This document shows, one piece after another, positions 4,542 through 41,884 of a stretch of 64,000 bases of DNA. Below the pieces are notes generated by a model. That model was given only the letters and a program-made list of their open reading frames with translations. It was not told the origin of the DNA and did not search any database. The position numbers and the translations under genes are program-made. Positions within the stretch are counted from its first letter, which is position 1, and each line of letters begins with the position of its first letter. The stretch is taken from positions 589 through 64,588 of the IMG/VR virus record IMGVR_UViG_3300047160_021165; one strand, written 5' to 3'. Source of the DNA: a virus.

Positions 4542-4709
4542 TTACTCCTTTTCCCTAGCTTCTAAGATTTCTTCTAATTTGAGAATGCAGAGTCCGCATT
4601 TTCTACCTAATTTAGCTTTTTCTATGATTTCCTCAGAATCAGTTATACCAGCTTCTATGAATTTCTGTACGTCTTTTTCAGTTACGCAGCTACAAACACA
4701 TACAAACAT
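4542..4709 (-). CDS. bfd: Bfd-like [2Fe-2S] protein (55 aa; not in ORF track)
   Basis: AGGAG SD then MFVCVCSCVTEKDVQKFIEAGITDSEEIIEKAKLGRKCGLCILKLEEILEAREKE. C4-x-C6-x31-C38-x2-C41 is the Fer2_BFD ligand spacing. Confidence 0.75.
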   Translation of the reverse strand: MFVCVCSCVTEKDVQKFIEAGITDSEEIIEKAKLGRKCGLCILKLEEILEAREKE

Positions 4710-4921: not shown

Positions 4922-4949
4922 TTATCGGCTAGGGTTCATCCAATCTTTA
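4922..4949 (-). promoter_or_regulatory. sigma28-like promoter TAAA(GATT)-N16-GCCGATAA
   Basis: Read directly; lies 30 nt upstream of the 4891 ATG. Confidence 0.65.
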
Positions 4950-5134: not shown

Positions 5135-5572
5135 TTAAGCTTGCAAAAACAAGTCTCTTTCTGCATTTCTACGTCTTAAAATACCAGCGCTTACTACGCC
5201 TCCGGCTCTATCCCACTTTGGAAATTCGTCAGCTGCTCCAGCAAAATCTTGCTGATTCACTAACTTAAGCAAAGTGGATTTCTCGAAATTGCCTGGACCA
5301 AGATTATAGGTAAAGCTAACCATGGCTGCGAATTGATTATCGCTCACATCTACGGTAATAGCTCCATCTACTGCTGATTCAAACCGGGCCAAATCACCCC
5401 GTAGGAGGCTTTCAGCTGCAGCCTCATCTATGACTTGCCCATCAAATACATCGGACCCAGTATGGCCGTAACCTACTGTAAGTACGCCCACTTGATCATA
5501 ATAAGCAGTTAAGCGTAAGCCTTCGAAGGATTTGATTAAATCAATCCCAGCTTGGTTTGTTTGTCTAGACAT
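5135..5572 (-). CDS. Endolysin, GH24 phage lysozyme
   Basis: IKSFEGLRLTAYYDQVGVLTVGYGHTG carries the E-x8-D-x5-T catalytic triad; also FTYNLG and RRNAERDLF. Confidence 0.93.
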   Translation of the reverse strand: MSRQTNQAGIDLIKSFEGLRLTAYYDQVGVLTVGYGHTGSDVFDGQVIDEAAAESLLRGDLARFESAVDGAITVDVSDNQFAAMVSFTYNLGPGNFEKSTLLKLVNQQDFAGAADEFPKWDRAGGVVSAGILRRRNAERDLFLQA

Positions 5573-6530: not shown

Positions 6531-6788
6531 TTATAACCCCTTTAAGGTTCTGTGTATTTCTCTAAGTAAGTATTTATGTAAGTCCCTGAATTTCTTGACT
6601 TCTGAGCTCATGAATACTTTCTCTAAGTCTCTAGCTACTTCTTTCTCATCGAAAAAACGCATTAAAACTCGAGGCTTAGATCCAGGAGTTTCGTCTATTT
6701 TGCACTCTATAAATTTTAAGCCCTGCAACATTAAAAATGCTGCTAAATCAACATCATGAGTTGAGAACTCTTTGAGAGGCTTATTCAT
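6531..6788 (-). CDS. Small protein resembling DUF5659
   Basis: FSTHDVDLAAFLMLQG resembles the DUF5659 N-terminal motif (from memory, unverified). Confidence 0.5.
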   Translation of the reverse strand: MNKPLKEFSTHDVDLAAFLMLQGLKFIECKIDETPGSKPRVLMRFFDEKEVARDLEKVFMSSEVKKFRDLHKYLLREIHRTLKGL

Positions 6789-6829
6789 AACGGCTCGTAA
6801 TAGCTAAAAACTTCCTAAGTCCTTAAAAT

Positions 6830-6838
6830 ATTATAACA
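6830..6838 (-). promoter_or_regulatory. Extended -10 promoter TGTTATAAT
   Basis: 2 nt after the NRAMP stop; faces the unit containing the endolysin. Confidence 0.65.
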
Positions 6839-6840
6839 TA

Positions 6841-8121
6841 CTAGCCTGGAAAAAAGATCATCTGTATAATCAGGACTATGGAAAGAATACTCAGCAGGCC
6901 TATAATGCCCCAGTTCACTACGTTATTCCATTTTTTGTTTTGAAATTCAGGACTTATCAGTTTTTTATCTTGGAGAAGTAACTGCAAGAAGATCATAGAA
7001 GTGGGAAGTACCAATCCAGCGAAGATTTGAACTCCGATTATGATCGCCTGGAGTGGAATATGGGGTATAGAAACCACCAAGGCAGCAGCTAAAGTAGCCA
7101 GAATATAGACAAAGTAGAAGGATTTGCCGTCTTTGAAGCTTAGATTGAGACTGCCTGGCTTTTCCATAACTTCAGCATGTGCCCAGGAACTAGCCAAGGA
7201 TATCGCCATGGTACCCAAAATTGCTGAATTCGCGAATAGCAAAAGAAGCAGATTCTTCCAATATACTCCGATGGTTGCTCCTAGATCCCTGGCCATTTGA
7301 GCGGGATCTGAATAAGCTATTCCCTTGGCTTTTAGGAGAGCTCCAGCGTACATCATGCCTCCGGCAACCAGGATAGTGAAAACAGCTCCTATCATGGTAT
7401 CTAGCCTGGAATCGGCCAGGTTCTTAGCTTCTAGCTTTTTATCGACTATACAGCTTTGTTGGAAGAACAGTTGCCAAGGGGCTATGGTTGTTCCCACAAT
7501 GGCTATTATCATAAAAATTAGGTTGGAAAAGCTGCCACTATAGGAAAGTGCAGGAATTACAGCATTCTTTAGATCAGCCCCATTCAGACCGAACTTGTAA
7601 CTGAAAGCCAGCCAAGAAGCATCGCAAACGCATAGGAGTATTGCGATTTTTTCCCAGCTGAAGTAACTTCCGCTAAGAATAATGGCATTTAAAAAAAGAA
7701 CAGCGGGGATCATGACTGCCCAGGCTGGGAGTGATAGCGCCGATGCTATCATGGCTAAAGCTGCGAACTCAGTTAACAGAGTTAAGAAGTTCAGGATATG
7801 GAGATTGGTTATGGAATAACGGCCCCAGAACTTACCGAATTTCTCATAAATAAGAGCTGCATGGCCTTTCCCAGTGCTCAGGGCTAGGCGAATTACCATT
7901 TCTTGGGCTAGATAAGTTATAGGGAGTAATAGAAGGAGAAGCCAGAAAAGCTTGGTACCGTAAATGGCTCCAGCTTGGGTATAGGCGGAAACTGCTCCAG
8001 CATCGTTGTCAGCTTCCATAACGATTAATCCAGGCCCTAAAACCATTAAAAATGTAAGGATTCGTATTATTAATGGGTTTTCGATTATTCTCTTTTTGAG
8101 AGCGAGTATTCTGTTTGCCAT
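6841..8121 (-). CDS. NRAMP-family divalent metal transporter (NRAMP-related subgroup)
   Basis: About 11 TM segments. TM1 region GPGLIVMEADNDAG, AQEMVIRL, and TM6 region GTTIAPWQLFFQQS match the NRAMP-related pattern. Confidence 0.88.
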   Translation of the reverse strand: MANRILALKKRIIENPLIIRILTFLMVLGPGLIVMEADNDAGAVSAYTQAGAIYGTKLFWLLLLLLPITYLAQEMVIRLALSTGKGHAALIYEKFGKFWGRYSITNLHILNFLTLLTEFAALAMIASALSLPAWAVMIPAVLFLNAIILSGSYFSWEKIAILLCVCDASWLAFSYKFGLNGADLKNAVIPALSYSGSFSNLIFMIIAIVGTTIAPWQLFFQQSCIVDKKLEAKNLADSRLDTMIGAVFTILVAGGMMYAGALLKAKGIAYSDPAQMARDLGATIGVYWKNLLLLLFANSAILGTMAISLASSWAHAEVMEKPGSLNLSFKDGKSFYFVYILATLAAALVVSIPHIPLQAIIIGVQIFAGLVLPTSMIFLQLLLQDKKLISPEFQNKKWNNVVNWGIIGLLSILSIVLIIQMIFFPG

Positions 8122-8274
8122 AACAGACCTCCTTTTTACCTGAATTTTAAGTTATTTGATATAAATCCCTTTCATTTCCGCAAGATAAGAACCATTCTTA
8201 AACATTGGGAAATAAACGAAAAGTAACTACCAGAATTCTACCATTTTTGGTAGAAGTTCAGGCAGCTTAAGTGA

Positions 8275-8301
8275 CTATCGGTATTTTGGGGGAAATCTTT
8301 A
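8275..8301 (-). promoter_or_regulatory. sigma28-like promoter TAAA(GATT)-N15-ACCGATAG
   Basis: Intergenic, upstream of the NRAMP gene, exact 15-nt spacer. Confidence 0.65.
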
Positions 8302-8318
8302 GATTATTTGATAAGCAT

Positions 8319-8624
8319 CTAAGATAAGAACTCTTTTAGAAAGTCTTGAAATTCCTCGGAGCTTTTGATCTTTTCCATGCTTTCTTTATACAGAGTTTGG
8401 ACTTTGGAGTTAGATAGCCCTAAAAGGGTGGCTATCTGTTGTTGGGATAGAGGCTGCATCAATCCATTTGAATCTGATTTCCTGGCTAAGTAGGCCCAAA
8501 AACAATATCCATCTTCTGGACTATTAATATAACAATCCTTGAAATGGGAAAAATCCCCAGGTTTCCCTGGAGACTCTTCGTTGGCTAGAGGTAGACAAGA
8601 GTGATTAGTTAAGAAGTTCCGCAC
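8319..8624 (-). CDS. Small protein with a sigma70 region-4-like HTH
   Basis: PLSQQQIATLLGLSNSKVQTLYKESMEKIK resembles the region 4.2 HTH. Start codon uncertain (GTG overlapping the upstream gene). Confidence 0.5.
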   Translation of the reverse strand: MRNFLTNHSCLPLANEESPGKPGDFSHFKDCYINSPEDGYCFWAYLARKSDSNGLMQPLSQQQIATLLGLSNSKVQTLYKESMEKIKSSEEFQDFLKEFLS

Positions 8625-9642
8625 GAGCTTTCATATCCCCAGTGTGTTGTTTCACGAATTCTTGAAGTTTGGCTTGGACGAAATCCACTTGATCCATGGT
8701 TACGTATGACATTTTTTCTTGTAGAACTTCATTCAACTCAGCTTTATTGTTGGGATTAACTGATTTTCCGTTGATTGTCATTTCTACGATCGCACCGGTT
8801 ACCAGAGGGCAATTAGCTGTTGTAATTTTAGCATCAACATTGAAAATAAGGATTTGAATGTGTTTTTCTACTGTTGTGGAACCGGCTAAAGTCGCGTTAC
8901 ATTCTGCAGTTACTACTTGGTCAGCCAATCCCATACTAACAGCTTCTTTACCTGTCATCCAGAGTTCTTCTCGGATCAATTGGAAATATCTATCTTGAGT
9001 GAGTTTACCATTGGTGCGTGCAATCGTATGGGCATCCCCTTCAGCAATCATGCGTTTAGCATATTGAAGGCGAGATTCTAATTGACCTGGGAATTCACCC
9101 ATAAAGCCGCCTTTAGCTCGGTGGGACATCAAAGTGCCGCTGTCTACAATGTAGCGTGTTCCTAAAGCTTCGGCTGTTTGGAAGCCCATAGAAGCCGCGA
9201 ACAAAGTCAACGTATCTACTTGATGGTGAAGACCTTTTAGGTTTTCGATCATATTCAAACCAGCATCGATGGATCCACCAGGAGTATCAAGTACTAAAAC
9301 GATATGTTCCCCAGGAGGCAATTTAGCATCAAGTTCTCTGGCCTTCATCGAAACTACCGCAGTGGAAGCTTCAGTAACTTCAGAATTCAATAGAATTGTA
9401 TTATTAGCATCCAAAACAACATGTCCAGCTACTAAAGACTCTGGAGTTAGAGATGTCAGAGCAGGAGTTGGTTCTATAGCATTTACGGCTTGGGGAGCAG
9501 CTAATACTGGGGGAGCTGTGAATCTTGCATAAATCGTACCCGGATTTGCAGCCTCCACGCTAAGAGCAAGAGCCATAGTGCCAATGCTCACCAACCCCAG
9601 AACGGTCAAAATTCCAAAAATCAATTTTTTCAAAGTTGCCAT
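8605..9642 (-). CDS. ClpP/S49-like serine protease with N-terminal signal or TM anchor
   Basis: VLDTPGGSIDAG, FAASMG (Ser), LMSHRA (His) and ELWMTGKEAVSMGLAD; hydrophobic N-terminus. Confidence 0.8.
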   Translation of the reverse strand: MATLKKLIFGILTVLGLVSIGTMALALSVEAANPGTIYARFTAPPVLAAPQAVNAIEPTPALTSLTPESLVAGHVVLDANNTILLNSEVTEASTAVVSMKARELDAKLPPGEHIVLVLDTPGGSIDAGLNMIENLKGLHHQVDTLTLFAASMGFQTAEALGTRYIVDSGTLMSHRAKGGFMGEFPGQLESRLQYAKRMIAEGDAHTIARTNGKLTQDRYFQLIREELWMTGKEAVSMGLADQVVTAECNATLAGSTTVEKHIQILIFNVDAKITTANCPLVTGAIVEMTINGKSVNPNNKAELNEVLQEKMSYVTMDQVDFVQAKLQEFVKQHTGDMKARAELLN

Positions 9643-9734: not shown

Positions 9735-9761
9735 CTATCGGAGAAAAGCTTAATAACTTTA
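9735..9761 (-). promoter_or_regulatory. sigma28-like promoter TAAA(GTTA)-N15-TCCGATAG
   Basis: Intergenic, upstream of the anchored ClpP-like gene, exact 15-nt spacer. Confidence 0.65.
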
Positions 9762-9777
9762 ATCGATTCCATAAGCA

Positions 9778-10602
9778 TCATATTTCATTCCATTCTTTAG
9801 AGCATTTATCCCGGAATGGACAGAAGCTGCATTTATCGGGAGTTTTAGGGGGTAGTTGTTTATTAGCTATAAATTCATTAGCCTTTTGAATTTTTCTATT
9901 CAATTTTGAGATATTGGACTTAACATGGGATTCTTCCAGGGAAAAAACCTTAAGATCCGAGGTATCTTTGTTTATATAAATTACCTTAATGCCTCTGACT
10001 TTAATATCTTGGGATAGTTGTGGAATATGATTAAAATCTCCGGCCTTAATGTGTTCTTTCATGGCTTCGAGATAGATAGAAACTTGATCCAAATGTTCTG
10101 GCAGAGGCTCTTCTAAGCCAGTGAATTTAGTGGCTTTACAGGATTTGATTTCATAGATCCAGAGCTCGTTGTCTAGAATGGCTATATTATCTATAAAACC
10201 CTTGTTTATTCCCCACTTCTTTGAAGATATCGGGAATTGTGGATTGGGAGTTTTTCCATCTCTATCCAGAGGTATTTGGCCAGTAACTGGATCTAAATAA
10301 GGTACATGCTCCCCTAAGGCCTTTATCCACTCCATCACCATGGTTTCATAGTATTTACCGGTTTCGAAGATCTTGGCGCCTTTAGAATCTACAGGGATAT
10401 CTTTATCTACTCTGAAATATTGGTAATAAATCTTGCGATAGCATTTCGTGCCTATGGAGGAGGGGGAATGGCTTGGTTTGGGCTTGGTTTCGGAAGGCTT
10501 ATTATATTCTTTGACTAAGTGCCTATTGATCCTGGAGATTAAAGGATCTCGGGGATTAACCCTTGATTTTTCTAAGAGATCCTTTAATCGTTCTAGGTTC
10601 AT
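9778..10602 (-). CDS. Cas4-like PD-(D/E)XK exonuclease with Fe-S cysteines
   Basis: SPSSIGTKCYRKIYY, GFIDNI..YEIKS and C-terminal CSFCPFRDKC. Confidence 0.85.
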   Translation of the reverse strand: MNLERLKDLLEKSRVNPRDPLISRINRHLVKEYNKPSETKPKPSHSPSSIGTKCYRKIYYQYFRVDKDIPVDSKGAKIFETGKYYETMVMEWIKALGEHVPYLDPVTGQIPLDRDGKTPNPQFPISSKKWGINKGFIDNIAILDNELWIYEIKSCKATKFTGLEEPLPEHLDQVSIYLEAMKEHIKAGDFNHIPQLSQDIKVRGIKVIYINKDTSDLKVFSLEESHVKSNISKLNRKIQKANEFIANKQLPPKTPDKCSFCPFRDKCSKEWNEI

Positions 10603-11171
10603 ATCACTTTGTCCACAATTCCATATTCGAGGAGTTGTTCCGGGTCCCAGTATTTATCTGTGTGTTTGGCTTCTTCTAGATAGAATTTCTTGCTTTTCTT
10701 GGAAAAATCGGCCATCCACTGAGCCCAAAGTTCTTCCATCTTGTCTAGATTGTTCATTTCAGCTTTGATGTAGGAATGTCTACCTTCGAGTTCATAAGAG
10801 GCTTCATGGTGCATAAAACAAGCATAACGAGAAATTAGACGTTCATCTCCGCAGGCTAGAATCAGAGTGGCTGCTGACATTATTCGGCCGTAACCTTCGG
10901 TAATGATTTTACATTTGGTGCGCTTGATTCTTCCAACTATTGCCAAAGCAGCGAAAACATCTCCACCATCAGAAGATATTCGAATGGTTATAGCTGAGCG
11001 ATTATAGCTTTCCATTTCTGAAAGAGCAGCTTCTACAAGTGAAAATACGTCATCGTTAATATCGGAGTTAATTAGGATCGTACGTTCCTTGAAATTTACG
11101 CCTTTTTCGAAAAGATAGTCTAAATGAAGTTGAAATCGTTCAGTATCTTTTTCATTAGCCTTGATTATCAT
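10599..11171 (-). CDS. clpP: ClpP-like protease (peptidase S14)
   Basis: ISSDGGDVFAALAI, IMSAAT (Ser), FMHHEAS (His) and TDKYWDPEQLLEYGIVDKVI (Asp region). Confidence 0.88.
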   Translation of the reverse strand: MIIKANEKDTERFQLHLDYLFEKGVNFKERTILINSDINDDVFSLVEAALSEMESYNRSAITIRISSDGGDVFAALAIVGRIKRTKCKIITEGYGRIMSAATLILACGDERLISRYACFMHHEASYELEGRHSYIKAEMNNLDKMEELWAQWMADFSKKSKKFYLEEAKHTDKYWDPEQLLEYGIVDKVI

Positions 11172-11433
11172 TTGAAGAATCCACCACTTTTGCCCGAATA
11201 TTAGAAACATTCATAACTAATAGGTCGATGCCATCTACGTTCTCTGGGGCAAAATCATTGCCGAATCGAACACTTAGGCCTACTGGATATTCTTCTGAAG
11301 AGGAGAACTTAACCACACCCTCATTTGTGCTGGGGAGTGCAGTCATAAAGGGAGAATCCCCTAGCTTTCTTTTAGCTAATTTATCATTCTTTTCAACGTA
11401 AATAGTGTTGTTTACTGGTATTAAGGTAGTCAT
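11155..11433 (-). CDS. groES: GroES-like co-chaperonin (divergent)
   Basis: 92 aa; LIPVNNTIYVE...EGVV...PVGLSVRF...VDGIDLLVMNVSNIRAKV follows the Cpn10 pattern. Confidence 0.7.
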   Translation of the reverse strand: MTTLIPVNNTIYVEKNDKLAKRKLGDSPFMTALPSTNEGVVKFSSSEEYPVGLSVRFGNDFAPENVDGIDLLVMNVSNIRAKVVDSSNDNQG

Positions 11434-12563: not shown

Positions 12564-14417
12564 TCAAGCTGCGGGAGGGACGCCTTGTTCGGGCTTTTGA
12601 TTTTCTTGGGGATTTTGCATTTGTTGAGCAAGTTCTGGATTTTCTTCCATTTTTTCCTCATTCTTTTCTTGCATATAAGCTTGGAGGAAAATTTGGTTAA
12701 GAATGACATCTCCACCAGTGATTGGTTCTAGGCCGTCTTCGTCTCTGATCTCGTTTACGGTTTTCTTGAAAGTCACTTCTTGGGCTTGACGTTTGACTTT
12801 TTCTTCAGCATCTTCTTCGTGTAGACCAGTCCACTCTAGCATGTAGTCTGGATCTAGTTCATCTACGATATTTTTATTGACGTAAGATTGGATAAACACC
12901 ATCAAAGGCACTAAACCTTTGTCTTTGGAGTTATCCAGCTTTTCTTTGGTGTTATCGCCAGACATGCCAGCTCCACCAACGTCCTTCATTCCATATCCGA
13001 TTTCAGCTGGATCTATTTGGTAAATAGCACAGATCATTCGAATAAGATAGTTCAACCATAGGCCGAATTCCATCTCAGAGTGGTTCTGAGTCAGGGGTAT
13101 CCATTGAACTTCATCCATACCCGCCATGATTGGGGTTTGGAAGGAGTTACGATTACCCTTAACCATATGGTTCCAATGGCGTCTAAGCTCTTCTAATTTG
13201 GAACGGTTAAGGTTAGCTTTAACGTGAAGAATCCCTTTGGCCGAGAATCCTTGGGAAAAATAGGATCGGTTATAGAATTCTGTTTGAAGATGGCTAGTTA
13301 CCAAGGCTACAAGCAGCTCGATTTCAGATATAGCGTAACCATTGGCAAAAATGTCAGTAATGCGGTTACGCATACCGAAGGCTAATTCATCTTCTGTAAA
13401 GGCTCTTTGGATACGCCCGCGGATCAATTGAACGTATTTGTATTCGTTCTTTTCTAGACGCTCATCATTAAGGTCCAGAGTATCCCTACGTTCCATGCCT
13501 TCGATTTCATCCTCGTTATAGAGGATATCAGCACCCATGGCACTCAAGTCAGCAGTTTTATACTTGCTAAGAGCTGGAGAAGCGTAACGGACCGTAGAGG
13601 CATCTATAGGATAGAAGTGGTGGATGTTCATTCTATCGTTGAGTACAGCTGCTTCTTTTGGCACTTTCTCAGTAGCCACTTGGTCAAATACAAGGGAATC
13701 CCAGGTAATAGCTCTGAGGTAGCTATCGAAGTTCCAAACTTTATTGTCAAAAGGACGATCTTTGAGTTCACCACAATTACTGATGAATTCAGCTATGGCT
13801 CTCTTTTTGGCCTTGGTTCTTTTGTTCAGCTCAGCTCTAGCTTGTCTGGTTTTTTCTTCCTCAGTTAAGGGCTTTTCCTTTAATTGGGAATCATCAGCTG
13901 CATTTTCAAGATGTTGCATAAGGCTAGAATCAGCCGTCATTCCTTTACGGACTTCAGCTAGATCGTCGCTAAGAGCATCTTCCTTATCCTGAGCTCCAGA
14001 AGTAGCCGTAGTTTCTTCTTCTCCCTCAAGCCCAAATAGCTCTTCTTTGATCTTATCAAGGGCATCATCTGGGTGTTTTAGCTCGATTTTAAATCCAGGA
14101 TCCGTACCTTCTGGTCTATATTGGGAAAATGCGGCTACTCGGTTTTGGCGGGTCTTTAAAATAGCAGAAATTACAGAGGATTTCAGAGCTATTTGTTTTT
14201 GATATTCGTAACTTATGGCTGTGGGCTTCTCAAAAAAGCCTTGGGAACCCATATAATAGGTTCTATCCCGAGTAATAGCTTTACCGAAGTTAAAGTATTC
14301 TCCGTCTTCACCACTTCCTATAGAAGTTCTGGCTTTATAAAGTTGGGCATCCAACATGGCGGATCCAACATCCAGCATCTTCTTGAAAATATTGTCATTT
14401 TTAGGTTGATCAGCCAT
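12564..14417 (-). CDS. Portal protein
   Basis: YPIDASTVRYA, YVQLIRG, SYFSQGFSAKGILH, ICAIYQIDPAEIG and TVNEIR match the large-myovirus portal pattern; adjacent to terminase. Confidence 0.9.
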   Translation of the reverse strand: MADQPKNDNIFKKMLDVGSAMLDAQLYKARTSIGSGEDGEYFNFGKAITRDRTYYMGSQGFFEKPTAISYEYQKQIALKSSVISAILKTRQNRVAAFSQYRPEGTDPGFKIELKHPDDALDKIKEELFGLEGEEETTATSGAQDKEDALSDDLAEVRKGMTADSSLMQHLENAADDSQLKEKPLTEEEKTRQARAELNKRTKAKKRAIAEFISNCGELKDRPFDNKVWNFDSYLRAITWDSLVFDQVATEKVPKEAAVLNDRMNIHHFYPIDASTVRYASPALSKYKTADLSAMGADILYNEDEIEGMERRDTLDLNDERLEKNEYKYVQLIRGRIQRAFTEDELAFGMRNRITDIFANGYAISEIELLVALVTSHLQTEFYNRSYFSQGFSAKGILHVKANLNRSKLEELRRHWNHMVKGNRNSFQTPIMAGMDEVQWIPLTQNHSEMEFGLWLNYLIRMICAIYQIDPAEIGYGMKDVGGAGMSGDNTKEKLDNSKDKGLVPLMVFIQSYVNKNIVDELDPDYMLEWTGLHEEDAEEKVKRQAQEVTFKKTVNEIRDEDGLEPITGGDVILNQIFLQAYMQEKNEEKMEENPELAQQMQNPQENQKPEQGVPPAA

Positions 14418-14855: not shown

Positions 14856-16676
14856 TTAGAAAAGAAAGTTGGGTCCATCCGTAGGCATATCCTCTTCTTC
14901 CAACTGGCTTTTATGGACCATTTTGCCGGTTTTGGGGTCCTTGGCGTACTCTCCAGAGTTATCTACCGCCCCGCTGAAGCCAGAATATTTATGGAGTAGC
15001 TCTACGGAGGGAGCTGTAAAGGAGCGCCCATACATATCCATGGGTATCCCATAATCAGCATTGCCAGCTATTTCCCCGCCTTCGGCCATATTGGCTGCTC
15101 CTGCCTTCTCCATAGAAAGGAAAGCTGCAGTAGCTATGGCATCTGCCAAGTCGTCAGATCCAGATTGGGGATGTCCTATTCTAATCTGTCCAGTCGCCGT
15201 CTGTTCGACCTGTAATTCCTTGATCTCTTTGGCTAAAAGGGGAACATCTAGGAAATCTATTTGGTGACTATGAATTAAGCGCTTAAGGTTGAAGTAGATT
15301 TTCTTCTTAAACGATACCGTAAAGGTACGTTCTACAAGGTTAACCCCGAATTGGGCGAAGATTTCTCTTAACGGCTGAAAGGAGAACTGGTCAGCTGTTA
15401 CCTGGTTGATTCCATATTCTTTGCAAGCGGAACGAATATAAGCAGCGACTTCAAAAGCCTGGACTGGCTCCTTGCTTGTACCTTCCCAATATTTCATTAC
15501 ATACTGAGTTACCCGCTTTTCGTTGTAACCGGTTATAGTGAAGGTGAATTTATCTCCTCTGAAGGCAGCATCTATAGCAGCTGAATATACTGTGTTTTTA
15601 TCGTCTGTTGGAGGTTGAAATGGTATGCCTTTAAGAACACACATATCCACGAATTCTGGGAGGATGAAGTTGGAAATAGAGTCTACGAAGTCAGCCCTGT
15701 ATTCTGTGGCAAAACCCCTCGAGTCTACCCTAAATTCATTCTTGAACTCTTCTTTAGGGAGGATAGTATTCATCATCCAGGAAGGAGCCTTTAGCTGGAT
15801 GTATTCGTCTTTTAGAGTTTCCCTCTTACTCCACTCATCATACATCACCCCAGCTTTAATTGCGGGGGAGGAAAGCTTAATAATAGTCCCATGTTCCCCG
15901 AACTGTAATAAAGCTGGTCTGATAGCTCGGAAAACTTCCACATCTGGTTCACTGGAATTTTCGTCCAAGTTCCACCAACATGCTTCGTCAGCTACTAAAG
16001 TACAGACGGCTCGTCCCCTGGTTGTTTTCTTAGAGGCAGCACCAATCTTAATACTTACGGTGGAGTATTCGATTTCCCCATCTTCTCCAAAGAAAGGCAC
16101 TTTTAAATGAAACGTGGATTGGGTGTCTTTACGTCCACCATCTTTTAGCCTAGATAGTACAGGGGATTCTTCCACCATAGTTCTGAGAATATCCAAAATT
16201 TCTTGAGAAAACTCTACGGAGTGGGAAAGAATGGCTACAGTGGCTACTGGGGTTTTCTTCAAGAAAGGTTTCCAGTTAAGTTTTATAGCGGAATAAAGAG
16301 CTATGATGGAAGCGCAGGTGGACTTTCCAGCGCGACGTCCGCATAGTAAGTTGATCCTATTGTACTTTTTCCCGGAATAGGTGTACTCCATCCCAGTAAA
16401 GAATTTATAGAGATCGACCTCCGTGAATTCCCGCATTATTAGATCGAAATCCCCCTCCATGTCTTTGGTTTCTACCCATACATCGTGTTTCTTTTGTTCA
16501 TCTAAGGGTTGTCCGAATACGTTTTTAAGAAGAACTATCTGACCTGGAGTGGGGGCAAAGTTGATGAATCCAGGAGCTTTTACGAAGTTTTCCATAGGAT
16601 TTTCCATGATTTTCCTATGAACAGCTCGGAAAAATCTAGCAAATTCAACTTCATTCATGTCAGCTATGGGGGTCAT
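14856..16676 (-). CDS. terL: Terminase large subunit
   Basis: Walker A GRRAGKST, Walker B VADEA, coupling motif LSSP, and nuclease motifs AIDAAFRGD and DDLADA. Confidence 0.93.
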   Translation of the reverse strand: MTPIADMNEVEFARFFRAVHRKIMENPMENFVKAPGFINFAPTPGQIVLLKNVFGQPLDEQKKHDVWVETKDMEGDFDLIMREFTEVDLYKFFTGMEYTYSGKKYNRINLLCGRRAGKSTCASIIALYSAIKLNWKPFLKKTPVATVAILSHSVEFSQEILDILRTMVEESPVLSRLKDGGRKDTQSTFHLKVPFFGEDGEIEYSTVSIKIGAASKKTTRGRAVCTLVADEACWWNLDENSSEPDVEVFRAIRPALLQFGEHGTIIKLSSPAIKAGVMYDEWSKRETLKDEYIQLKAPSWMMNTILPKEEFKNEFRVDSRGFATEYRADFVDSISNFILPEFVDMCVLKGIPFQPPTDDKNTVYSAAIDAAFRGDKFTFTITGYNEKRVTQYVMKYWEGTSKEPVQAFEVAAYIRSACKEYGINQVTADQFSFQPLREIFAQFGVNLVERTFTVSFKKKIYFNLKRLIHSHQIDFLDVPLLAKEIKELQVEQTATGQIRIGHPQSGSDDLADAIATAAFLSMEKAGAANMAEGGEIAGNADYGIPMDMYGRSFTAPSVELLHKYSGFSGAVDNSGEYAKDPKTGKMVHKSQLEEEDMPTDGPNFLF

Positions 16677-24371: not shown

Positions 24372-27017
24372 TTATTTAGCATCCCTTAAGGTACTTGCGA
24401 TGAGTGGCTCAGCTATCATGGGGATTTCTACTAATTTGGTGTAAATATTGTGTTCCATCGATTCCTGAATGATAGCAACTACTTCCTTAATTCTAGATTT
24501 TTCCCCATAGACGGTAATCTCATCATGAACTTGGAGGCATACCCATGCTCTCAATCCAGCTTTCTTGAATTTGCGGGTCATATCCAACATGGCTCTGTTG
24601 GTTAAATGTGCTCCTAGAGCCTGGATTGGGAAGTTTTTGGCATTGTTAAGCTCATTCTTATACATGGATCGGACAAAACCCCAATCCCTATATTTCTTCT
24701 TCTTTTCGTCAAAGAGAGAGAATCCTAGTTCCTCGGAGAGTTTAGTCAAGTGAGCCTTAGTTAAACCCCTATAGTTCATTTTCTTAAGCTCTTTATTCTT
24801 CTCATCAAAGAACTCCTCGTAATCCATTCCAACATCTCTAAGAAGTCTGAATACTTTAGGAGCGAATTCGAAATGGCGTCTACGTCCTACAAGGGTTTCC
24901 ACGAATCCGTTGGCATTTGCCTCTGCTTCCTGGCGTAGCATATATTTATGGAGTTCTCGGTAAGTATCCAGATATTTATCCCTAAATGCTTTTCCACGTT
25001 CTACATCTAGAAACTCTTTCGCCTCTCCCTGGAATACCACCTTGACTTTGAAGTCCATTAAGTTAGCCACTTGTGGCGCTCTGGCCCCGTAAGGAATGCC
25101 TAGAACTACCGGTTTGACCATGTCTCTTTTGGATTTATCCATCTTTTTTAAGAAATTAGGAGCATTTGGATCCGCTGAAAATTTACCATCTTTATCTTCC
25201 ATGTCGCAATAAATCTTGGAATATAGATCTAGATTGGCTAGATATACCTCTTTGAGCTTAGGATCCCCCGAAACTTCCGCAAAACAACGGGGTTCAAGAG
25301 AGCTGTAGTCAGCGTTGGCTATATCCATTCCTTCGGGGGATATGAAACCCTCCTTAATGGCGGAAGGGCTTAATATATCGGTGAAATCCGAATTACATGC
25401 GTTGCAATGCATATTTGTAAGTAGTTTTATGCGTTTTGATACATGAATATCTTTACTGCCGCATTTGTAGCATTTATCAGTTTCCTCTACCTTGGGTAGC
25501 GTTTGAAGGTTAAATCCTCCCCCGCAAGCAAAACGGCCGGATATGGTACCGTGTTGCATCATATCCATGTATAAGTAGCCTTTATAATTGAGATTTATGG
25601 CGGGTAATATGTAAGTGCCGTATAGCTTTTCCAATTTCTTATATAAAAGCAATGGTTTGACGAAATCATGCTTTTGAAGGAAATAGGTTTCTAGAACCTC
25701 AGCCTTCATGGAGGGGATTACGTTTTCTGGGGTAGCTGATTCAGTCTGAGGTAATTTGGCTCCATCGTAGCCTAATTTCGAGCAGAAGAGCCATCGGAGA
25801 TGCTGATCGGAGTTTATATTGAACTGGAACCTACGGCCCTCAGAAGCGATATAAAGCTCCTTTTTGATCTCATTCAGCCTATCTTCTGAATATCTGAGCT
25901 CATTGTAACCAAGAATGTATCCCCAAAGCCAATGAGGATCTTTATCGTAAGCATCCTGAACTGCTTTCTTGGCTAGAGATTCCTTACCTTTTTGGATAGG
26001 ATAAGGGAGATTTTCTAGTTCTATGATTCTTTCTATGAGCTTACGTTTGGTAACGGAAGCATCGATAGATTTACCTTTGGTGAAACCTTGCAATAACTGG
26101 CTGGACTCTAAAGCTTTTATGATATCGTGTTCTAGATCTTGGAGTTTTTGATGTGTTTCAGTTTCCATCTCTACGAAATGCTGGACGTTGATTCGAACTC
26201 CATTCCTACGCATGGGAATAACAACTTCTCTACATAATGGCATTACTTCTTCTTCAAAGAACCATTTCCAGCGTTTATCGGATTCTTCTTCAGAGAACTT
26301 CTGCATGCCCACTTCGAATACGCCATAGGTAAGGAAGGTATCCGCAACGGCGTATTTACCCAAAACTTCCAGATCTGCCCTCCAGATATGTTTCTGGGAT
26401 TTGTTATAGGTTCCCCCGTTTTTGATCACGGAATCGCCCATTTCGAGTTGTTCTTGGTTGGCTTCCTGATCAGCAGAAATGCCCAGATCCTTTTGCCAAA
26501 GTTTGGCTATTTCCTTCAATCCAGCCGAAGTGTTCTCATCTAGAACGTGTTTGAGAAGTACAGTATCGCAGAGTACATGGGGGGATAGATCCACTCCAGA
26601 TGCCTTTTCCAGAACCAAGCAGTCGAATGGGGCATTATGCATGAGTAATTTGGTATCAGCTCCAATTATCCAACGCGTCAGGAAATCGGCCAACCATTCA
26701 GGGGGTTTATATTGATCCTGGGTAACATCTTCTGGGTAATAAGCGTCTCTCCAGAAATCCTTGAGTCTACCCTCAGTATAGACTCCCTTGGAGTTCTGAG
26801 AACCGTCGGTAGGAACCCAGTGCAAGAAAGGGATATAAAATCCTGATTTAGAGTCTGTAGAAATAGATAAACCTATAATTACATCTTTCCAGAATGCCAA
26901 GCCGTTAGTTTCGGTATCTACTGAAAGTATCTCGAATCTAGGTTTATCCCCATTCATGAGAAATTCATCCAATTGGAGAATATCCTCAAAGGATCGAATA
27001 ATGTTGTATTTATCCAC
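24372..27017 (-). CDS. polA: Family A DNA polymerase with 3'-5' exonuclease domain
   Basis: Exo motifs DTETNG, HNAPFD and YAVAD; motif A ADYSSLEPR, motif B RDMVKPVVLGIPYG, motif C QVHDEI. Confidence 0.95.
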   Translation of the reverse strand: MDKYNIIRSFEDILQLDEFLMNGDKPRFEILSVDTETNGLAFWKDVIIGLSISTDSKSGFYIPFLHWVPTDGSQNSKGVYTEGRLKDFWRDAYYPEDVTQDQYKPPEWLADFLTRWIIGADTKLLMHNAPFDCLVLEKASGVDLSPHVLCDTVLLKHVLDENTSAGLKEIAKLWQKDLGISADQEANQEQLEMGDSVIKNGGTYNKSQKHIWRADLEVLGKYAVADTFLTYGVFEVGMQKFSEEESDKRWKWFFEEEVMPLCREVVIPMRRNGVRINVQHFVEMETETHQKLQDLEHDIIKALESSQLLQGFTKGKSIDASVTKRKLIERIIELENLPYPIQKGKESLAKKAVQDAYDKDPHWLWGYILGYNELRYSEDRLNEIKKELYIASEGRRFQFNINSDQHLRWLFCSKLGYDGAKLPQTESATPENVIPSMKAEVLETYFLQKHDFVKPLLLYKKLEKLYGTYILPAINLNYKGYLYMDMMQHGTISGRFACGGGFNLQTLPKVEETDKCYKCGSKDIHVSKRIKLLTNMHCNACNSDFTDILSPSAIKEGFISPEGMDIANADYSSLEPRCFAEVSGDPKLKEVYLANLDLYSKIYCDMEDKDGKFSADPNAPNFLKKMDKSKRDMVKPVVLGIPYGARAPQVANLMDFKVKVVFQGEAKEFLDVERGKAFRDKYLDTYRELHKYMLRQEAEANANGFVETLVGRRRHFEFAPKVFRLLRDVGMDYEEFFDEKNKELKKMNYRGLTKAHLTKLSEELGFSLFDEKKKKYRDWGFVRSMYKNELNNAKNFPIQALGAHLTNRAMLDMTRKFKKAGLRAWVCLQVHDEITVYGEKSRIKEVVAIIQESMEHNIYTKLVEIPMIAEPLIASTLRDAK

Positions 27018-33768: not shown

Positions 33769-35370
33769 TTACCCCTTCTTAATCGTAATAGCACCACCCG
33801 CTGTAGAAAGCAAGCCTGCTATTGAAACTGCGTTTAAAAGCGCTGTTTTAGTGACTTTTACTGGATCTATGATGCCTGCTTCCAGAGCTTTAACTGGCAT
33901 ATCTTTTCGACCATCCCACGTGGTTTCGTCGCTAGCCAACATATCCAGTTCCATCTCGTGGATTTCTTTAGTATTTTTTCCTAGATTCAGCAAAATCTGC
34001 GTAAAGGGAGCTCTCAAAGCTCTTCTCAGAATTATGTGGCCTACAGTATCTGCTGACAAGCTGTTGGCTATTCTAAGCAAGGTTACGCCCCCTCCAGGTA
34101 TTACCCCTTCAGCGATAGCTGCTCTGGCTGCATTAACTGCATCTTCGATACGGTGGTATTTTTCTTTGACTTCCAAATCAGTTAAACCACCTACTCCGAT
34201 CTTGGCAATACCTTCAGCTAGGGCTGAAATCCTATCTGAAACAATCGCTGCATCATATGGGCTTTCTGCCTCTTCTCGTTGAGCTTTTAGTTGCCCAATT
34301 CTAGCTAAGACAGCCTCTTCTTCTCCAGCTCCCCCAAAGAAAGTAGTGGTGTATTTGTCTACAACGATCTTAGAGGCTACTCCGATATCTTCAAATTCGA
34401 TGTTGTTCAAATTACGGCCACCATTGCCCATACGGCTACCGCCCAAGTAAACCGCCATATCATCCAGAATAGCTGTGGTAACTTTGGTTTGGTGTGGGCT
34501 TTTTACTGCGCATACAGATAGGCCAGATTCTGCTCTATTGATTAAAAATACTTGAAGTACTTCATTGCTGAATTCGTTAGCTATAAACACTACTGGTGGC
34601 ATTTTGCCTTTGTTTTTATCCCATAGAAGTTGCAATACGGGGATAACTTGGGTTGGGCTATTGAGTTTACCGTCGAATAAGATTACGTGGGCATTTTCTG
34701 CTTCGAACTTGGTTTTTTCTGGGTTATTGTAGAATCTGTCTCCACCTTCTCCTCCGCGTCTGATTTGGAACCCATCCACTACAGTCAAGCTATGGTTCGC
34801 ACCGCCACCCTCATCCACAGTGATAATCCCTTCTGGGCCTACGGCTTCGAAAGCACCACGGATAACAGAGCCAATCTCTTTATCTCCGTTGGCTGATATC
34901 GTGGCTACATGTTCGATCATGTCGTAAGATAGGCATGCAGTAGCTTGACCGCTGAGCAGTTCTAGTACTTCTTGGGAAGCTTTTTCCAGAGAAACCCTAA
35001 CTTGTTGTGGATTGAGTTTTTCTTTCTCAATTACGGCCAGGCAGGCATCCAGCAGAGCTTTACCCAGAACGATAGCAGTAGTAGTTCCATCCCCAGCTAC
35101 TCTGTTGGTTTTGGAGCATATATCCTTAACAGCCTGAATAACCACGTCTACAATGGGATCATCTGAGGCGCATTCTCCGGCTACTGTGACCCCGTCTTTG
35201 GTAATCATGGGGCCCAGAGGCTCTCCGTTGAGTTGTTGGCCTACTCGTTCGATCAGGATGGGTAATCCACCTGGTCCAAGGGTTCGACCCACTATGGAAG
35301 CGATTGAGTCGATTCCTTCCTTGATGTGGCCGTACATTTCAGTTTTGTGGGTGATGGTCTTTCTCAGCAT
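33769..35370 (-). CDS. groEL: GroEL-like chaperonin
   Basis: TLGPGG, ITKDGVTVA, AGDGTTTA, GVIPGGG and GIIDPVKV; no GGM tail. Confidence 0.96.
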   Translation of the reverse strand: MLRKTITHKTEMYGHIKEGIDSIASIVGRTLGPGGLPILIERVGQQLNGEPLGPMITKDGVTVAGECASDDPIVDVVIQAVKDICSKTNRVAGDGTTTAIVLGKALLDACLAVIEKEKLNPQQVRVSLEKASQEVLELLSGQATACLSYDMIEHVATISANGDKEIGSVIRGAFEAVGPEGIITVDEGGGANHSLTVVDGFQIRRGGEGGDRFYNNPEKTKFEAENAHVILFDGKLNSPTQVIPVLQLLWDKNKGKMPPVVFIANEFSNEVLQVFLINRAESGLSVCAVKSPHQTKVTTAILDDMAVYLGGSRMGNGGRNLNNIEFEDIGVASKIVVDKYTTTFFGGAGEEEAVLARIGQLKAQREEAESPYDAAIVSDRISALAEGIAKIGVGGLTDLEVKEKYHRIEDAVNAARAAIAEGVIPGGGVTLLRIANSLSADTVGHIILRRALRAPFTQILLNLGKNTKEIHEMELDMLASDETTWDGRKDMPVKALEAGIIDPVKVTKTALLNAVSIAGLLSTAGGAITIKKG

Positions 35371-41489: not shown

Positions 41490-41873
41490 ATGGTCATTGA
41501 ATTAGAACATGCTTTTTCTGGGACTCACGTATTTGGTGAATTTTACGGAGTAGACGGCCATTTATTGAACGATTATGATCGTTTGGAAAGCGCCTTGTTG
41601 GCTGCAATCCAAAAGAGTGGGGCTACAGTCTGCAATATCCAAGGTAAGCTATTTTCCCCCAACGGGATAACTATCCTTGCTCTATTGGAAGAATCCCATG
41701 CAAGTTTGCATACTTACCCCGAAGAAGGAGCGGTATTCTTTGATGTATTTACCTGCGGGAATAAGTGTAATCCTTTAGAAGCGGTGGAAATGCTCAGGGC
41801 CGCATTCCGTCCAACTGAAGAAAAAGTCAAGGTAAATCAAAGGGGTAGAAAAAAAGCTAAAGTTTTAGAATAA
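41490..41873 (+). CDS. speD: S-adenosylmethionine decarboxylase proenzyme (class 1B)
   Basis: GTHV, FSPNG, LLEE|SHASLHTYPE self-cleavage motif and DVFTCG. Confidence 0.92.
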   Translation: MVIELEHAFSGTHVFGEFYGVDGHLLNDYDRLESALLAAIQKSGATVCNIQGKLFSPNGITILALLEESHASLHTYPEEGAVFFDVFTCGNKCNPLEAVEMLRAAFRPTEEKVKVNQRGRKKAKVLE

Positions 41874-41884
41874 AGCCCCGATAA
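41858..41884 (+). promoter_or_regulatory. sigma28-like promoter TAAA(GTTT)-N15-CCCGATAA
   Basis: Spans the speD stop; 41 nt upstream of the 41926 ATG. Confidence 0.7.

Follow-up and report, generated by a model that had tools for sequence, protein, structure and literature searches.

An NRMT-like transporter gene of the NRAMP superfamily in a phage genome from soil metagenomes

Why would a phage genome carry an intact gene for a metal-ion transporter of the NRAMP superfamily, and what could the protein do for the phage? The question is raised by a 64,000-nucleotide stretch of viral DNA (the window; G000:C1:589-64588), taken from the IMG/VR virus record IMGVR_UViG_3300047160_021165, here called G000, which is 108,914 bp long with direct terminal repeats and a completeness rating of 100%. 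The gene lies on the minus strand at 6841..8121 (ATG at 8121-8119), and its open reading frame (ORF) is intact, encoding 426 aa with 11 predicted transmembrane (TM) helices. In our assessment the product is probably a functional secondary transporter on the NRMT side of the superfamily which, made from a phage promoter, would import Mg2+ (probably also Mn2+) uncoupled and boost the cation supply. Family, fold, binding-site residues, residence in a phage, a phage-type promoter and persistence in divergent phages are directly supported; the substrate, an uncoupled uniport, the timing of expression and the benefit to the phage are what we infer.

The protein matches PF01566 (Nramp) with an E-value of 1.2e-47 and 163 bits against a cut-off of 29.8, over residues 45-390, the whole transporter core; according to Cellier (PMC9606685) this family comprises Slc11, an outgroup and NRMT. 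The NCBI models for MntH scored far under their cut-offs (NF001923, 62.6 vs 430 bits; TIGR01197, 36.7 vs 272.5 bits). The closest solved structure by sequence was EleNRMT (7QIA; E 2.9e-45, 158 bits), followed by ScaDMT (E 3.6e-13, 52 bits) and, more weakly, the human NRAMPs. An AlphaFold (AF2) model built from 33 sequences reached a mean predicted local distance difference test score of 88.2 and a predicted template-modelling (pTM) score of 0.87, and in it TM1 and TM6 are unwound at their centres, where the helices break (residues 38-40 and 213-214, respectively). Foldseek returned 7QIA as the first match (E 2.2e-17, template-modelling scores 0.81/0.86), with DraNramp, human NRAMP1 and ScaDMT ranked lower, and the top 29 PDB matches were all NRAMP-family proteins or a YcsG model. 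A first-pass annotation, made from the DNA letters, had proposed a full-length NRAMP-family transporter, and both the family match and the fold agree with it.

Aligned in TM1, the canonical D-P-G-N falls on D40-A-G-A43 of the phage protein and on D55-A-G-G58 of EleNRMT; in TM6 the canonical A-x-x-M-P-H corresponds to T211-T-I-A214-P-W216 and T224-T-I-A227-P-W229, respectively. Compared with the canonical site, Met has been replaced by Ala, His by Trp, Asn by Ala and Ala by Thr. The first-pass claim that the selectivity Met is missing holds, A214 standing at its position in the alignment with EleNRMT. The motif strings DNDAG and TTIAPW are both present, but the TM1 register read at that time was two residues off, DAGA being the correct counterpart of DPGN. 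Both TM6b histidines of H+-coupled NRAMPs are substituted, the first by W216 and the second by Q221 (Asn in EleNRMT), while E118 in TM3 (EleNRMT E133) and Q365 in TM10 (EleNRMT Q379) are retained. Over the cellular and phage copies together, 68 alignment columns are invariant.

The meaning of these positions is known from EleNRMT, in which Asp55 and Gln379 are essential and Thr224 is specifically required for Mg2+, loss of the Met takes away a soft ligand, Gly58 widens the site for a hydrated ion, and replacement of the histidines and of charges in TM3 and TM9 accompanies H+-uncoupled transport (PMC8806188). The NRMT signature DxxG-TxxA/T was defined in the same work by Ramanadane et al. 2022 (PMC8806188). 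The phage site, DxxA-TxxA, differs from it at one residue: TM6 carries TxxA/T, with the Thr gained and the Met lost, and TM1 lacks DxxG, having DxxA in G000 and in a related phage, G001, alike.

In a collection of 5.8 billion proteins, the 120 nearest to the phage protein are 52-57% identical to it; all have DAGA but one, which has DVGA, and TT[IV]APW occurs in 118/120. Their sources are soil Acidobacteriota, Armatimonadota, Chloroflexota, Bacteroidota, Bacillota and others. When 92 diverse members of the family were placed in a tree, the G000 and G001 proteins came out as sisters (support of 92 in the Shimodaira-Hasegawa-like approximate likelihood ratio test) within a clade of 35 DxxA proteins that itself had 99% support; EleNRMT falls in a separate clade, whose representatives reach 334-351 bits to 7QIA vs 158 for the phage protein. 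Other PF01566 clades carry other signatures, for example DxxS-AxxM and DxxG-NxxA. The NRMT relationship suggested at first pass is thereby refined: the protein is closer to EleNRMT than to ScaDMT and has 7QIA as its top fold match, but it belongs to a separate DxxA-TxxA clade and not to EleNRMT's own. The phage copies sit on long branches outside the cellular crown group; no donor lineage is nameable, many phyla lying at about equal distance (50-59% identity). As a side observation, of 151 genomes from the family to which a Granulicella sp. genome belongs, 141 have a homologue, mostly about 30% identical, and 8 have the DAGA type (51-54%); the two types are distinct paralogues. G005 and G028, which are unpublished, are counted in this tally, and no conclusion rests on them.

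The cellular relatives offer a clue to the substrate. An Rfam scan of 63 of their loci (numbered with L) detected a single family, the M-box Mg2+ riboswitch (RF00380), and no Mn2+ riboswitch. The M-box lies upstream of nine DAGA-type genes on the coding strand (Sporolactobacillus L013, L022, L023, L027, L031, L032, L038, L039, L043; 107-145 bits), hence in at least 9 of about 46 loci of DxxA-TxxA type, and also before two longer relatives of TTVAPW type, L065 (DAGG) and L076 (TM1 motif not captured). In 29/43 GTDB loci (L018-L060) the cellular gene adjoins a conserved partner of 80-100 aa, recognisable by the motif (V/I)HPLxDxPExK and by a hydrophobic helix at the C-terminus; the partner was also located at L013:5351-5590, L015:5391-5639, L027:2798-3049 and L012:3588-3884, and the gene order in L027 is M-box, transporter, small gene. 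The partner had no precomputed Pfam match in the three loci with gene calls listed. Capture of this pair by the phage as a two-gene cassette was considered and ruled out, the 85-aa gene downstream of the phage transporter not being homologous to the cellular small partner. Nor does the phage transporter adjoin an MgtE-like fragment gene; its neighbours are unrelated.

M-box riboswitches on the cellular DAGA-type relatives favour Mg2+ over Mn2+ as the probable substrate of the clade. The same association led Shin et al. 2014 to predict that Clostridium NRMTs transport Mg2+, which they went on to show (PMC4072509). A protein importing mainly Mn2+ or another transition metal, which might serve an Mre11/SbcD-type nuclease or a metal-mobilising programme with a Bfd-like ferredoxin, has some appeal, and we give it a real but clearly lesser chance. 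EleNRMT transports Mn2+ too (PMC8806188), and the riboswitch-less Acp2977 of A. capsulatum fully rescued a Mn2+ uptake defect and rescued Mg2+ uptake weakly, at millimolar levels only (PMC4072509). Ala43 makes the site narrower than Gly58, the phage encodes a Metallophos SbcD-like exonuclease and an SbcC-like ATPase, its Bfd-like [2Fe-2S] protein shares the transporter's promoter class, and cellular Mn2+ rises on phage infection in E. coli (PMC12802263). However, the soft Met ligand favouring transition metals is absent, Thr211, needed in EleNRMT specifically for Mg2+, is present, and the riboswitch found on the nine DAGA-type relatives is the Mg2+ one.

With import of Mg2+, and probably Mn2+, as the preferred reading, the following course may be proposed. 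The transporter would be made from the phage promoter during infection and inserted in the host cytoplasmic membrane, where hydrated Mg2+, and probably Mn2+, would enter down the membrane potential with no proton coupling. The extra divalent cations could then feed the phage polymerase, nucleases, terminase and nucleotide enzymes. The gene suggests, in short, a phage that tops up the divalent cations of its host during infection.

Such a proposal presupposes that the gene belongs to the phage, and it does. The stretch is present in four soil-metagenome runs, whose independently assembled contigs are identical to it (0 differing letters), with no joints or loose ends reported in the matching contigs. 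One contig covers 6049-8100, that is, two downstream genes, the 3' junction and almost the entire transporter gene; the 3' junction is also bridged by contigs at 6771-7148 and 6778-6928, and the 5' junction by overlapping contigs from separate runs at 7955-8158 and 8118-8445. The first-pass annotation had asked that the assembly be confirmed across the flanks; contigs from the four runs cover both junctions and do not support a chimera.

The second line of evidence is G001 (IMGVR_UViG_3300021405_000007), a viral contig of 108,106 bp that has about 75 ORFs in common with G000 at 27-76%, mostly 35-60%, amino-acid identity. Its copy of the transporter is 51% identical, comparable to the portal (47%), the large terminase subunit TerL (55%) and the polymerase (52%). 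In both phages PD-(D/E)XK, ClpP-like and sigma-region-4-like genes lie upstream of the transporter and a DUF5659-like gene downstream, other genes (about 10 kb and 2.3 kb) being interposed in G001 between the transporter and those shared neighbours. This loose synteny favours one capture over two for the gene of G000 and G001. The guanine-plus-cytosine (GC) content of the transporter gene is 43.2%, that of the phage ORFs 41.7 +- 3.1% and that of the cellular homologues 59.5% on average. Genes of this kind are typically found in cells, and the data come from metagenomes, so an assembly chimera or bacterial contamination, in which the transporter would be foreign to the phage genome, has to be weighed. 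Because run-independent contigs agree across both junctions, G001 holds the gene between the same neighbours in the same order, and base composition fits the phage, we regard this as very unlikely indeed, close to negligible.

How the gene would be expressed is indicated by a promoter-like site at 8276-8301 on the minus strand, TAAAG-N15-CCGATA (TAAAGATTTCCCCCAAAATACCGATA), which fits the sigma28/FliA/SigD consensus and lies 18 nt past the stop of the upstream gene and 155 nt ahead of the ATG. The site had been called sigma28-like at first pass, and it proves to be one of 14 in the genome: TAAA-N14-17-CCGATA occurs 14 times in the 108.9 kb of G000 vs 1.6 times expected (maximum 5) in shuffles. 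All 14 sites read TAAAG, are intergenic and face an ORF 11-155 nt downstream, the observed spacing being N14-16. Because of this excess, and because every site is intergenic and ORF-facing, TAAAG-N14-16-CCGATA is, as far as motif statistics can tell, a real promoter class of the phage lineage, with the transporter as a member. The other members in the window are at 4923-4949 and 9736-9761 on the minus strand and at 41858-41883 on the plus strand, and ten further sites lie outside it, at 69.7-95.6 kb of G000:C1. The class also precedes the Bfd-like operon, an exported ClpP-like gene and, at roughly 86-95 kb (window coordinates, past the window end), a group of small ORFs that looks like an early region. 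Nine TAAAG-type sites were found in G001. G000 encodes a sigma-70-family factor of its own (415 aa; G000:C1:97749-98996, minus strand; L103:750-1997), with 78.7 bits for region 2 and 39.6 bits for region 4; among NCBIfam models it matches those of RpoD type best, rather than those of FliA type, and the G001 homologue is 37% identical.

The transporter leader is the longest of the promoter class; with a transcript start near 8268 its length would be about 147 nt. Its predicted fold has a minimum free energy of -40.7 kcal/mol (z = -3.6), and 0/200 shuffles were as stable. It consists of a 5'-terminal stem-loop of 18 bp in three segments followed by a U-rich tract (8225..8267, minus strand) and a second stem-loop (8166..8221, minus strand), and leaves unpaired the Shine-Dalgarno sequence AAGGAGG (8128-8134, minus strand), 6 nt 5' of the ATG. 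An 8-bp hairpin seen at first pass at 8236-8255 (8255-8248 pairing with 8243-8236 around a 4-nt loop) turned out to be the core of the 18-bp structure. A 5'-terminal stabilising stem-loop would be the simplest reading of the leader, and attenuation via the U-rich tract is possible; the fold is not conserved in G001. At the other end of the gene an extended -10-like element, TGTTATAAT (6830-6838, minus strand), starts two bases past the transporter stop and looks like a second promoter class. Its orientation, towards the next gene (6531-6788), suggests that the transporter is transcribed as a separate unit; a consensus scan found no terminator-like site on the transporter strand.

How widely do phages carry such genes? 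A tblastn search of 50,697 GenBank phage records gave no match at E <= 1e-5, and none of the PHROG families matched at the same threshold. A scan of the 2.9 million IMG/VR contigs with the two most conserved peptides of the clade found G001 only besides G000, and no closer phage copies turned up among the 5.8 billion proteins, where the best non-self match of the G001 protein is 59% identical and cellular-looking. The rarity in phages that had been surmised at first pass is thus supported by the GenBank, PHROG and IMG/VR searches. Literature searches turned up no NRAMP or NRMT described from a virus: the family is known, but the phage context of an NRMT-like gene is unreported.

A library of 50% clusters contained two deep-branching relatives, P0123 (41% identity) and P0126 (40%). 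Their contigs (L098-L102) have 30-32% GC and many ORFans, and encode a PurZ-like adenylosuccinate synthetase (phrog_1211, E 5.7e-61), an enzyme of the 2-aminoadenine pathway, together with ThyX, a deoxynucleoside monophosphate kinase and a GH108 endolysin. In the stretches compared, these contigs have no gene in common with G000 and G001 besides the transporter, and no copies of P0123 or P0126 were found in IMG/VR. Judged by sequence, the AT-rich, PurZ-encoding contigs are a second, unrelated phage lineage with an NRMT-like gene. We also observed a departure in each of the AT-rich copies: TM6 of one reads TTTTTW, and in the other Gln takes the place of the TM3 Glu. In a second tree the sister relation of G000 and G001 was unresolved, and the four phage-borne proteins stood together on one side of a 99%-supported branch, a grouping possibly aided by AT-driven composition and long branches.

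These results bear on whether the gene is a passenger that contributes nothing to lytic growth, be it a captured gene in decay or a moron useful only to a lysogen. The gene is carried by just two IMG/VR contigs and no catalogued phage, both the cellular partner gene and the riboswitch are missing, and the branches in the trees are long. Even so, the reading frame has stayed intact in a pair of phages whose core genes are by now about 50% identical, the family-invariant and binding-site residues are all retained, base composition is near the phage's own, a strong Shine-Dalgarno sequence and a promoter of the phage's own class are in place, and a separate phage lineage independently has such a gene. 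A passenger therefore seems improbable to us.

A different role would be an effect on the membrane itself, an uncoupled flux depolarising it and so acting in superinfection exclusion, lysis timing or interference with defence signalling. EleNRMT transport is electrogenic and uncoupled, an endolysin gene lies three genes downstream of the transporter, and the CBASS defence is modulated by metal levels. The conserved ion-binding residues, however, indicate selective transport rather than a leak, and the transporter has its own promoter, with another promoter separating it from the lysis gene; we think a membrane role quite improbable.

Going beyond import as such, we may ask whether G000, G001 and the AT-rich PurZ phages represent one phage NRMT-like lineage that does without partner or riboswitch, with the transporter acting, alongside the Bfd-like ferredoxin, in an early sigma28-type programme that rewires host metals. 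This is speculative and we advance it with considerable reserve; if true, it would be a class of viral auxiliary function so far undescribed.

Several points weigh against import of Mg2+ by this protein as proposed above. In TM1 there is Ala where the NRMT signature has the Gly that gives room for hydrated Mg2+; identity to the EleNRMT clade is low (29% to one of its proteins) and the clade is a different one; and ion transport by DxxA-type members is so far a prediction from sequence and fold. The Acp2977 result would mean that membership of the clade leaves the substrate unfixed. The phage leader has no M-box or other Rfam family, a scan at E <= 10 giving chance-level matches only, and no homologue of the cellular partner was found in G000, G001 or the AT-rich phage contigs. 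Before the G001 transporter there is no sigma28-like motif, its place being taken by TGGTATAAC, an extended -10-like element, and none of the RNA runs contains the transporter stretch.

The setting of the gene is clearly that of a phage. Profile matches in the window identify the endolysin (5135-5572), the portal (12564-14417), TerL (14856-16676), the DNA polymerase (24372-27017) and a GroEL (33769-35370, minus strand), and the other phage genes around the transporter include a class II-like ribonucleotide reductase, a primase-helicase, SbcC- and SbcD-like nucleases and two ClpP-like proteins. The initial description of an intact 426-aa protein amid phage genes is therefore correct in view of the ORF, its PF01566 match, these neighbours and the complete genome with its terminal repeats. 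The next gene downstream of the transporter is the DUF5659-like gene (85 aa; 6531-6788). The Bfd-like [2Fe-2S] protein (55 aa; 4542-4709, minus strand; PF04324, E 8.7e-10, above the cut-off) is encoded 2.1 kb from the transporter in an operon behind its sigma28-like promoter, followed by two small hydrophobic ORFs. The two ClpP-fold genes lie at 8605-9642 and 10599-11210 on the minus strand, and the first, preceded by a sigma28-like promoter, encodes a product with a hydrophobic segment at its N-terminus and a long extension at its C-terminus. More than 100 relatives of the phage GroEL were seen (P0273-P0391; 54-77% identity), many of them encoded on contigs about 100-122 kb long and a few bearing intein-like insertions (PF14528); their number and these contigs suggest that GroEL-encoding phages form a large family, most of it uncatalogued. 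Scans of IMG/VR for this wider family returned generic GroELs only (32-37% identity) with a GroEL pattern, and G001 only with TerL.

Phages are well known to carry auxiliary genes for the metabolism of phosphate, carbon and sulfur, but importers of divalent cations are scarcely documented among them. If the protein works as predicted, the supply of Mg2+ or Mn2+ would limit the reproduction of soil phages enough for an importer to be retained in the long term, and such an importer would have been kept by at least two unrelated phage lineages. The DxxA phage protein would also be a compact, partner-free variant of a little-studied Mg2+-type branch of NRAMPs, useful for probing how the Gly/Ala position of TM1 and the small partner contribute to selectivity.

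Among known systems, the canonical MntH/Slc11 transporters (ScaDMT, DraNramp, EcoDMT) have in common with the phage protein the Pfam family, the LeuT-type fold and the TM1 Asp, whereas DPGN, A/CxxM-P-H and the proton-pathway histidines are absent from the latter. EleNRMT of Eggerthella lenta (PDB 7QIA/7QIC/7QJI/7QJJ; PMC8806188) is of the same length class, resembles the phage protein in fold and is alike in the TM1 Asp, the TM6 Thr and Ala, the Trp in place of the first TM6b His, the TM3 Glu and the TM10 Gln. It differs in belonging to another clade at about 25-30% identity, in having Gly58 where the phage has Ala43 and Asn instead of Gln at the second TM6b His, and in not being virus-encoded. 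CabNRMT/NrmT of Clostridium acetobutylicum (Ca_c0685, Ca_c3329; PMC4072509), compared here by their description, are also Met-less, and their Mg2+ role was inferred from the M-box; the phage gene has neither an M-box nor an MgtE-like fragment gene. Closest are the cellular DxxA-TxxA proteins, with 50-59% identity, an identical site signature and a place in the same 99%-supported clade, although their genes usually have the 80-100-aa partner up- or downstream and often an M-box, and the phage copies have neither. With respect to viral residence, CorA-family Mg2+ transporters are encoded by two Nitrosospira phages (bioRxiv 10.64898/2026.05.02.722434) and Mg/Fe transporters by giant viruses (PMC9270025); these belong to an unrelated protein family, but they are likewise virus-borne auxiliary cation importers.

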